Positions 27,135-39,470 of a DNA stretch of 64,000 bases are shown here, piece after piece. The position numbers were made by a program, and so were the translations under genes. Source of the stretch: a virus. The notes beneath the pieces were generated by a model. That model made no database searches and had not been told where the DNA came from. It saw only the letters and a program-made list of their open reading frames with translations. The first letter of the stretch is position 1; every line of letters starts with the position of its first letter. The stretch spans positions 1 through 64,000 of IMG/VR virus record IMGVR_UViG_3300033692_000004; one strand, given 5' to 3'.

Positions 27135-30100
27135 TTAGATACAATCAGGTATATTATTAATATCTTCTTTAGTAATATTATTCTGTAGTAGCATATTGGT
27201 AATATCTTTACCTTGAACTTGTTCAGTAGTACTAACACTACTCTTATTAGCTTTAGTCATAGAATATTGTTTAATTTTGTTCTGACTAAATAAAGTTTCA
27301 GGCACAGTCATATTTATATTATATTCTACTACATGATTATGAATACCTAACTTATCAGTTAATTCATACTCAAAACCATGTTCACTTTTACCTACAAATT
27401 TATACAGATTATATTCACCATCTTGCTCGTGTGCAATAAATTTAACTGGTTCTTTACGATCCATTTCTTTGATAACAAAATCATCTGATTTAACTGTATC
27501 AGGGTTAACTGTAAAACCAATTATACGTTTACCTTGAGTGTTTCTAGTAGACACATTACTGAAATCATCTTTAACTCTAGGTACAAATGCAGCATTTCTA
27601 TACATATTTCTATAGAATTGCTCTATAAAATTAGTTTGATCGCCATAGTCGTACATTCCAGGGCCTATTCTGTTATATAAATAGTCACTTAATGTATTAC
27701 CATTAGAATCCCTTATAACGCTTAAATAAGCCTCTGTAGGTACTAAATGAGAGAACCCATTCGGACCGAAAGATAACCCCGCTGTAAAGTAGCTATATTT
27801 AATCAAGTCTAGTCCCAACTTATTAAGACTTTCATTAGTACTATTCAATAAGTCTAACCATGCATTCTGTACATCATTACGTTGGCTATCAGTAAAGCTA
27901 CCAGTATTATCAAATACTAATCTATCTGTAGGATTATCATTATCAGCGGCTTCATATCTTAATCTCTTTAGTAAAGCGTTATCCTGTAGATCAGAATTAT
28001 TATCAATAGTTTTAAATACTCTTAATGGTAAATCCATTATAATATCCTGTGCTTCAGATATATCAAAGAAGTCAAATCCTGATATTGTATAGGTCACTAT
28101 ATTATCATTAATAGTATTTAATTGCTTAGCACTTAATCTATTAAATTTATGGTTAGCTCTAATCTCTTGCTTAATACTATCAAAGAATTCATTCCGATAT
28201 GGGAACATTTGGTTTAGTATAGTCTCAAGAGGTAGCTCAATGCCATATCTGTTAAAATAAGTCTCTAAGTTAGTATCAGTATCATTCTCAGTTACAAATT
28301 CTTCCACACCATCAATTAAGAATCGCTCATCTCTAATATCAGCTCTTGCATTCAGCATTACTTCAGCATCTGCTAATGTTGGACCCAAAGGTTTAGTATC
28401 AGCTTGTGTAGCCTGGATAAGCTTACCTAATGCCTTTGCAGAGGCCTTATAACTATTATAAGCTATAAGAACATTAGACTGTAATTCAGTATTAATATCA
28501 GTACTTCCAACTGCATCGAACATGTCTTGAGTATTCAAATTAGGTGTATCAGCATTTAAGTCTACATTCAGTGAGTTAGCTACATCTTTTATTACTGAAT
28601 CTTCACTAATATCTTCAGTAGCAATTCTATTCTGAATGTGCTGAACTACTGGCTGATTTACAAAGCTAGAGGCGGTAGCGATATCATAACCTGTAGCTAG
28701 TATTAATGAAAATAAATCAGAGGTTTCTGTTGTATATCCAATATCAGAAGCTACAGGATCTTTTGCATTATCCATAACAGCAGCTTGTGGCTCTGCAAAA
28801 TTCTTAGTAATAAGCTTATTAGGTACCTTTATTTCCTTTAAGGTCTTAGAGCCATCTTGTTTTGTTACGACCTCAAACTGAGTAACGGCTTTTTTCTGGC
28901 TGATAGACACCTCGGTTTTATAATCAAATCTAACAGGTTGCTTTAGTGACAAGTTAGCATTTTGTCTAAGGGCATGGTGTGCATTGTGTATAGAAGCAAT
29001 ACCTTTAAGTTGAGTACCTACCATATTTCGCTTAGCCATTACATCATTAGACATCATATCATATACATCTAATTCCTGACCTTCCGTAGCTGTTTTATCC
29101 CTAAATAAACCTGCTAAGTCTTTCAGGTAATCAAAACCACCAGGCGTTAGAATGCTAGGCAATGTGGCTGGATTTCTAAGAACCCCAAGCATTATATCAA
29201 TCTTAGCATTATCTCTAGCTCCCTTGGATTGATCTGACCAAGGCTTTTCTAAATCATATTTATCTACCTCATACGTAGTACTAGTTACGTTCTCAGTAAT
29301 TGTACTTGGTAAATATTTAATCTCATCATATAATTCTTGTTCACGAGAATCTAATTCTTCATTATTAGCAGCCTTGTTATATACAGTGCGTACTTGGCTG
29401 TTGCTTGTAATGTAGCCACGCTCACTAAGTTCTTTTACTATACCAGAATAATCAGACTCAGATTTACGCTTAAAAGACTTCATCATTACATACATCTTAT
29501 CTACATCAAAGTCACTACCTGAGATAGTTGTGATTTCAGCAGGTAACATAATAGCTCCTCCAGATTCTAACGGTAAGAACCCTACTACTTTTAGAGGTAG
29601 CATAGAGTATTTATCCTCTGTAGGAATACGATATCCAATCATATCTAATAACTCAGGTGCTTTCTGCTCAACCTCGGTAAAGTTAATATTTCCATCTGAA
29701 TCTACAAAATCTTTATAGAACTCTTTTGACCAAGCTGGTAATAATACTTCAGCATAATCTAAACCAGTATCTTTTATAATACCTTTAACAATTAAGTTTT
29801 TAAAATCTACCGTCTCTGGAAATAGTTCTGACGAATTAGGGTTATATTCTACTTCGGCTGTTTTAAGAATTTTATCAACAATTTCTTCTATAAGATCTCC
29901 TGAATCTCCTATCACAGTTAAAATAGATACTAAAATATCTTCATTATCTTTAGCAAAACTATACTCAGAGTCCGACATTCCATACTCAGATAGTATCTCG
30001 TTATCAAAATCTCTACCGTCTGATATAGTGCTATCTTCTTTACCTGTAAAAATTTCAGAAACCTCTATTAATTTTGAAGTATCAAAAATAATATCATTAT

Positions 30101-39470: not shown

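Follow-up and report, generated by a model that had tools for sequence, protein, structure and literature searches.

The window analysed here is a stretch of 64,000 nucleotides (nt) of viral DNA (positions 1 to 64,000 of IMG/VR virus record IMGVR_UViG_3300033692_000004), which homology identifies as part of the genome of a crAss-like phage; megablast detects no DNA similarity between the window and deposited phages. On its minus strand lies a single open reading frame (ORF) for a protein of 4,111 amino acids (aa), which is preceded in gene order by ring 2, ring 1, muzzle and then ORFs of 419, 320 and 710 aa (Table 1). This setting agrees with an initial annotation of the DNA, which had placed the giant ORF where podoviruses keep their ejected internal proteins. 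Its modules follow one another in the order A, linker, X, ADP-ribosyltransferase (ART), Y, zincin and RNA polymerase (RNAP), a map derived from tiled Pfam scans and from BLAST comparison with 194 homologs that two large protein searches had supplied. Judged by these homologies, the polypeptide fuses two members of the crAss-like phages' trio of 'RNAP-associated' virion proteins, namely the A-type protein and the catalytic RNAP, and the C-type protein stays separate. The A-type part would consist of module A, the linker, X and the zincin-like module, with ART and Y inserted between X and the zincin.

Integrity of the giant reading frame

The uninterrupted 12.3-kb ORF described in the initial annotation is real. 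Gene calls yield the identical 4,111-aa protein on six contigs, of which one is 96.6 kb long and which stem from JGI, ENA and Logan assemblies. Relatives at 25–39% identity have the same fusion of module A, zincin and RNAP (A-Z-R), and A-Z-R fusions are seen in P0001-P0005, P0016, P0023, L013, L014 and L070. Two motifs considered below are each unique in the protein: DFDVD at residues 3320–3324 is the sole DxDxD and HEAFH the sole HExxH. Full-length scans of the protein against Pfam and PHROGs return almost nothing, and tiles searched against PHROGs return nothing. The ART-PolyVal domain is missed by a full-protein hmmscan and found above the gathering score by tiles of 219 and 500 aa; giant phage proteins need tiled scans.

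Table 1. Positions of the giant ORF, its modules and neighbouring features in the 64,000-nt window
Feature	Coordinates (nt)	Strand	Remarks
Ring 2	49465..50103	minus	PF25702, E 8e-22
Ring 1	47752..48636	minus	PF24228, E 2e-48
Muzzle	43967..47749	minus	PF25731, E 6e-166
Three predicted cargo ORFs without Cys (710, 320, 419 aa)	39482..43860	minus	Upstream of giant ORF
Giant ORF, predicted crAss-type cargo polyprotein	27135..39470	minus	4,111 aa, ATG start, TAA stop
Module A, aa ~60-760	37191..39293	minus	N-terminal domain of crAss 'RNAP-associated' protein
K/E/S-rich low-complexity linker, aa ~760-1020	36411..37190	minus	Composition
Module X, conserved domain, aa 1022-1413	35232..36407	minus	Homolog alignments
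ART-PolyVal, aa 1488-1641	34548..35009	minus	Pfam PF18760
Module Y, small beta domain, aa 1699-1799	34074..34376	minus	Highly conserved
Zincin-like module, aa ~1840-2010	33441..33953	minus	HEAFH 1915-1919 (nt 33714-33728), EEQLADEF 1941-1948
Module R, predicted virion RNAP of gp66/crAss type, aa ~2011-4111	27138..33440	minus	6VR4 match, E 5.2e-33; DFDVD at nt 29499-29513
Cys4110, sole cysteine, penultimate residue	27141..27143	minus
Next gene, C-type 'RNAP-associated' cargo protein, 1,291 aa	23250..27125	minus	tblastn, BLAST
Cys3, sole cysteine of the 1,291-aa protein	27117-27119	minus

Polymerase, zincin-like and ADP-ribosyltransferase modules

The C-terminal half is identified by homology as a single-chain, two-barrel virion RNAP of the crAss/gp66 type, as the initial annotation had proposed. 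In a phmmer search of PDB sequences with module R, gp66 of Cellulophaga phage phi14:2 (6VR4) is the only match (Table 1). The aligned blocks pair residues 2668–3100 with gp66 871–1264 and residues 3271–3708 with gp66 1326–1777, and DFDVDKMYVM aligns with the catalytic DFDIDKMYVM of gp66 (DFDID 1361–1365). The motif lies 787 aa from the C-terminus, compared with 815 aa in the 2,180-aa gp66, which bears out an earlier estimate of ~790 aa and a gp66-like position. HMMER and BLAST alignments span gp66 778–1264, with the connector (1095–1238), and 1313–1777, with the bridge helix (1529–1559) and trigger loop (1598–1636). With tblastn, module R hits 136 phage records; almost all of them are crAss-like, and the annotation of many is RNA polymerase. 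An alignment of eight diverse RNAPs has 39 invariant columns, among them D3320, D3322 and D3324. Between the two aligned blocks, residues ~3100–3271 (nt 29660–30170) amount to ~170 aa versus ~62 aa in gp66, and the extra sequence is an acidic, Ser-rich insert immediately upstream of the catalytic barrel.

Directly N-terminal of the RNAP, the HEAFH motif that had been read as a zincin site belongs to a conserved module. The pattern GTxYHEAFHAxF and a downstream EExLADxF are common to 14 aligned sequences, with HExxH intact in 13 of them and degenerate only in P0005. The downstream element is missing in P0029 and degenerate in a few others, and most sequences retain it. Retention of both elements argues for selection on a metal site. 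Homologous crAss genes are annotated in GenBank as zincin proteases. Of the earlier reading, the motif stands and the fold match stays below threshold; the putative zincin assignment draws on motif conservation and earlier annotation, with weak database support for the fold.

The ART-like module, which had been placed at residues ~1480–1640, coincides with Pfam domain PF18760. The match found by tiling has an E-value of 3.3e-9 and 38.1 bits against a gathering score of 31.2; values from different scans lie between 36.0 and 38.6 bits (E 2e-9 to 1.4e-8), with profile positions 7–130 of 140 covered. Of 28 segments from homologs, 26 also match this domain. Both His1492 and Tyr1520 are conserved, and the aromatic residue of GFYFT is retained.

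Between the ART and the zincin lies module Y, which is 50–69% identical to segments of P0028 and P0031-P0037, proteins that carry other enzymes, and which looks like a mobile adaptor domain. Its AlphaFold2 (AF2) model has a predicted local distance difference test (pLDDT) score above 90, and Foldseek with the model of residues 1440–1840 gives only weak similarity, driven by this domain, to the KOW-like proteins eL6 and OapB (E 0.01–0.05). Among the partners of module Y in otherwise unrelated proteins are an AlkB-like 2-oxoglutarate-Fe(II) oxygenase domain (PF13532) in one small protein and a molybdenum cofactor (MoCo)-carrier-type domain (PF12694) in another; it also matches the C-terminus of the RNAP protein P0028. 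The distance from X to the zincin is ~423 aa here versus ~87 aa in P0001, the closest relative. ART and Y together (~1440–1836) are therefore a cassette inserted relative to P0001. Other relatives carry helicase, Zeta-toxin kinase or PP2C domains instead. The N-terminal ~1,950 aa had been regarded as extra relative to a stand-alone gp66-type protein. This view needs revision: residues 60–760 and the zincin correspond to an ordinary crAss 'RNAP-associated' protein, and the insert relative to P0001 is confined to ~1440–1836.

ART domains recur in such proteins. Of the best 150 ART representatives, 18 also carry crAss cargo modules, and the 5,057-aa protein P0048 has the architecture A-X-Z-ART-ART-RNAP-C. 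Among IMG/VR loci, the domain occurs in 7 of 80, with A-ART-zincin-RNAP fusions in L069 and L070. Searches of deposited phages by tblastn with the ART described here or with a more typical family member gave no match; a hidden Markov model (HMM) later found the domain in the uncultured phage cr85_1. In that phage (Kahnovirus oralis, MT774390.1; L001 26360-27166), residues ~2329–2459 of QOR59483.1 match the full length of PF18760 (E 9e-23), where the ART follows the zincin of a 'putative RNA-polymerase subunit' and is unannotated in the record. The string "ADP-ribos" is absent from Yutin 2021 and the 2023 review, and the literature searched does not mention an ART with crAss cargo. From these profile matches, ART-PolyVal is identified as a recurrent, unannotated accessory of crAss cargo proteins, those of deposited gut phages among them. 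The domain is a specific candidate for the means by which the gut's most abundant phages might alter Bacteroidota host cells upon injection.

The N-terminal modules are less readily interpreted. Module A is present in 29 of the 30 homologs P0001-P0030 at 25–36% identity and matches KP06_gp45 of p-crAssphage by tblastn (module A HMM, E 2e-42). Its AF2 model is all-alpha with long helices (pLDDT 66.7). The Gly/Ala-rich hydrophobic helices of the initial annotation are present; none reaches transmembrane-level hydrophobicity, and no N-terminal transmembrane helices are found with a 19-residue Kyte-Doolittle window (>1.3). A weak GH108 match within module A (~474–514, E 0.023) is dismissed, as no EGGY-like catalytic motif is seen. 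The K/E/S-rich tract that follows is as described earlier: Lys, Glu and Ser make up 33% of the linker compared with 23% of the whole protein, and no homolog alignment spans it. Module X is common to P0001, P0002, P0027 and P0048 (21–23% identity) and gives a weak match to phrog_3911.

Neighbouring cargo genes and terminal cysteines

The 1,291-aa protein encoded by the next gene matches 91 phage records annotated 'RNA-polymerase subunit' by tblastn and gp65 of phi14:2 by BLAST (E 2e-17). Its counterparts are gp49 in crAss001 and, in phi14:2, the C-terminal portion of gp65. The two ORFs share a reading frame, with only TAA and three codons between them (27126–27137), and RNAP and C-type modules are fused in the relatives P0048 and p-crAssphage gp44; this position may be a recent fission or fusion point. 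On the other side of the giant ORF, the Pfam family crAss_CARG1 (PF25725) is divided between two adjacent in-frame ORFs (42601–43860, 419 aa; 41617–42579, 320 aa), with profile positions 4–63 at the end of the former and 75–128 at the start of the latter. TAA TAA and a few codons separate them, and their joint size of ~747 aa approaches that of crAss001 cargo protein 1 (90.8 kDa). Stop-codon recoding was considered for both in-frame pairs and is rejected, as TAA separates the members of the first pair and TAA-TAA those of the second. The giant ORF itself contains neither TGA nor TAG in frame and so gives no hint of recoding. Stop usage in the window is TAA 19, TAG 4 and TGA 0 for 23 minus-strand (late/structural) ORFs and TAA 18, TGA 7 and TAG 6 for 31 plus-strand ORFs.

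These cargo proteins are almost free of cysteine. Given a background of 0.91% Cys in the other ORFs of the window, the probability of one Cys or none in 4,111 aa is 2e-15. The five cargo ORFs together have two Cys in 6,851 aa, to which the three upstream ORFs contribute none. Cysteine suppression is a hallmark of the ejection proteins of N4-like phages, where it is attributed to passage through the periplasm (PMC11445570). The near-absence of Cys speaks for ejection of the entire chain, ART and zincin included.

The remaining cysteines lie at protein ends and have a strict polarity (Table 2). In every reference phage checked, A-type proteins have Cys at the C-terminus only, RNAPs at both ends and C-type proteins at the N-terminus only. 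IAS virus also conforms to the terminal-Cys pattern. An N-terminal Cys is absent from proteins with A at their start, and those that in addition have C at their end, P0048 (A-...-RNAP-C) and P0029 (3,242 aa, A-Z-C), lack Cys altogether. If the full pattern is defined as Cys at both termini of the RNAP and, in the downstream protein, Cys at the N-terminus and none at the C-terminus, then 47 of 49 distinct pairs of RNAP and downstream protein in IMG/VR have it. Of the two pairs that deviate, one (L070) has A fused to the RNAP, as in the 4,111-aa protein, and lacks an N-terminal Cys. No description of a terminal-Cys pattern in cargo proteins was found in a limited literature search.

Table 2. Cysteine positions in the A-type, RNAP and C-type cargo proteins of reference phages
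Phage	A-type	RNAP	C-type
phi14:2	gp67, Cys1797 (last residue)	gp66, Cys3 and Cys2179	gp65, Cys3
crAss001	gp47, Cys2339 of 2,341	gp50, Cys5 and Cys2404 of 2,412	gp49, Cys5
cr85_1	Cys2515 of 2,518	Cys3 and Cys2401 (last)	Cys5
Dulem virus 41	Cys2471 of 2,474	Cys4 and Cys2247 (last)	Cys5
p-crAssphage	gp45, Cys1956 of 1,957	gp44 (RNAP-C fusion), Cys3, none C-terminal	Within gp44
Fpv2	Module not detected	gp33, only Cys4400 of 4,401	gp34, Cys3 (+ Cys1461)

Interpretation and relation to known systems

Very probably, the product of the giant ORF is packaged in the capsid and injected into the host as a cargo polyprotein of a crAss-like (Crassvirales-type) phage, and its RNAP starts early transcription. 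Its counterparts, phi14:2 gp65-67 and crAss001 gp47/49/50, are virion proteins by mass spectrometry (for phi14:2, Drobysheva et al., bioRxiv 10.1101/2020.03.07.982082). Packaging in virions and responsibility for early transcription that resists rifampicin are known only for the homologs in phi14:2 and crAss001. If phi14:2 gp66 and crAss001 are taken as models, the 4,111-aa protein would be synthesized late and stored in the cargo zone of the capsid. It would then pass down the tail before the DNA in a partly unfolded state and refold in the cytoplasm, where the RNAP module would transcribe early genes without the host RNAP. Some host target may be modified by the ART module, and the zincin, whose position coincides exactly with the A|R junction, may set the RNAP free. 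Enzymatic activity of the ART, and likewise of the zincin, is in each case possible, with a probability a little below even.

The polarity of the terminal cysteines suggests that Cys4110 and Cys3 of the next protein are joined head-to-tail by a disulfide. More broadly, A, RNAP and C could leave the capsid as one linear covalent thread with a peptide bond or a disulfide at each junction, a model that we hold tentatively and place just short of an even chance. Each junction would be either a gene fusion, as for A|RNAP here, or a bond from a C-terminal Cys to a Cys at residue 3–8 of the next protein, and all other cysteines would have been purged from the thread proteins. Reduction in the cytoplasm, perhaps with zincin cleavage at fused junctions, would release the parts. 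The 2023 crAss001 and 2026 N4 structure papers raise the problem of how ~700 kDa of cargo is put in order and passes through a narrow tail, and the terminal-Cys rule offers a simple, directly testable model for it.

Several alternatives need to be weighed. The ORF could be an assembly or sequencing artefact in which a chimeric join or an overlooked frameshift combined two or three separate genes (A-type, effector, RNAP), and A-type and RNAP genes are indeed separate in crAss001, cr85_1, phi14:2, IAS virus and Dulem virus 41. Assembly fusion is, however, very unlikely, because the identical protein occurs on six independently assembled contigs, which come from three assembly sources; the A-Z-R fusion also occurs in relatives as distant as 25–39% identity, and the junction lacks the terminal cysteines that mark true protein ends in this family. 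We give an artefact almost no weight. A different objection concerns the cysteines, which might not link cargo proteins at all and might instead tether them to the portal, tail or DNA, bind metal, or be remnants of terminal motifs. The virions of crAss001 contain disulfides, and those described are in tail and portal-vertex proteins (PMC10172136), which favours this alternative. Its difficulty is the polarity of the pattern, with C-terminal Cys in A, Cys at both ends of the RNAP, N-terminal Cys in C and none in P0048 and P0029, which is hard to explain without linkage. We consider the alternative a substantial one that is still appreciably less than an even bet.

It could also be that the effector modules are not enzymes, such that the ART is a pseudo-enzyme, the HExxH has a structural or metal-binding role in packaging or ejection, the chain remains intact and only the RNAP is catalytic. 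A structural role in packaging or ejection has been proposed for the C-terminal domain of N4 virion RNAP (vRNAP). Several observations weigh against the enzymatic reading or against the module assignments themselves. The third catalytic position of the ART is occupied by His1632 in place of the usual Glu, which departs from the H-Y-[E/D/Q] pattern; among 28 relatives, the same column holds Glu in 15, Gln in 3, Asp in 2, Asn in 2, His in 2 and another residue in 4. The ART may be inactive or have altered chemistry. PARP-family enzymes without the Glu are still mono-ARTs. An AF2 model of residues 1440–1840 (15-sequence alignment) has pLDDT <50 over most of the ART part, and a profile search of PDB sequences with the ART gives no match. 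For the zincin, the match to Tox-MPTase4 (E 0.004–0.016) is below the Pfam cut-off and is obtained with only one of 13 members, and a profile search of the PDB gives only FtsH (E 0.38). Module A has no recognisable fold, with only non-significant Foldseek matches to helical membrane proteins in the PDB, and the N-terminal ~600 aa of the RNAP module (2010–2609) have no BLAST alignment to gp66. The homologous HExxH domain of N4 vRNAP is without demonstrated protease activity (PMC5512222), and that vRNAP is packaged uncleaved (PMC5512222; PMC13434306). Likewise, crAss001 gp47/49/50 are detected as high-molecular-weight virion proteins. Against the non-enzymatic alternative, the ART retains His1492 as well as the aromatic of GFYFT, and its match exceeds the Pfam threshold, while the HExxH is intact in 13 of 14 sequences and the EExLAD is mostly kept. 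Overall, we regard this non-enzymatic reading of the effector modules as rather unlikely.

The initial annotation knew of no described polypeptide that combines an injected RNAP, a putative ART and a putative self-processing protease. Both crAss zincin fusions and an N4-like combination of vRNAP, zincin and ART have been published. Drobysheva et al. (bioRxiv 10.1101/2020.03.07.982082) reported that, in some crAss-like phages, all three virion 'RNAP' proteins are fused in a single huge polyprotein and that a zincin-like protease is carried by one of them, and a review puts the upper size of RNAP genes at ~6,000 aa. Iyer et al. 2017 (PMC5512222) described N4-like virion RNAPs fused to a zincin metallopeptidase (MPTase), with an ART in addition in Roseovarius Plymouth podovirus 1. 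An A-X-ART-Y-zincin-RNAP order in a virion-gene context corresponds to their definition of a polyvalent protein, a large phage protein that joins unrelated domains with early functions, as a rule with an MPTase and an ART among them. The polyvalent reading of the initial annotation is essentially right in its domains; the unprecedented status it implied is unsupported, as p-crAssphage gp44 and Fpv2 gp33 are comparable.

Among individual systems, phi14:2 shares with the window a homologous two-barrel RNAP with an aligned DFDxD motif, a late-gene position, the set of three modules and the terminal-Cys pattern. It differs in having three separate proteins and an HExxH at the N-terminus of gp65, downstream of the RNAP, whereas the 4,111-aa protein, at ~25% identity, joins A-type and RNAP parts in one chain, has the zincin before the RNAP and carries an ART; an HMM search of gp65-67 finds no ART. 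In p-crAssphage (Carjivirus communis), KP06_gp45 consists of A and zincin (HExxH at 1743; 'RNAP associated protein fused to zincin protease'), and KP06_gp44, with 4,070 aa, contains the RNAP (DFDVD at 1433; 'RNAP catalytic subunit fused to unknown RNAP subunit'). The permutation is A-Z | R-C, compared with A-...-Z-R | C here, and no ART is found in gp44 or gp45 by HMM search. The cultured Flavobacterium phage Fpv2 also has a giant protein, the 4,401-aa gp33 ('virion structural protein'), which contains an RNAP (DYDID at 3222). It is very divergent, such that only the RNAP core aligns, and its HExxH lies at residue 4179; BLAST detects no A or zincin module in gp33, and HMMs detect no ART or zincin. 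The cr85_1 protein QOR59483.1 (2,518 aa) is A-type and has a zincin at 2073–2258, then ART-PolyVal and then Cys2515, but this polypeptide is separate from the RNAP, which is encoded on the opposite strand, and its ART comes after the zincin instead of before it. The vRNAPs of N4-like phages (Schitoviridae) combine an injected RNAP, an HExxH zincin and, in one phage, an ART in a single polypeptide with strong Cys suppression. Their RNAP fold is T7-like and single-subunit, in contrast to two double-psi beta-barrels, so that the polymerases are related by analogy and not by homology; the N4-type proteins are reported to be Cys-free, and a terminal-Cys pattern is not mentioned for them. A vRNAP, an ART and a zincin in one chain is already a described concept in N4-like phages, giant fusions are a hallmark of the crAss group, and the 4,111-aa ORF is a new permutation of this known modular system.

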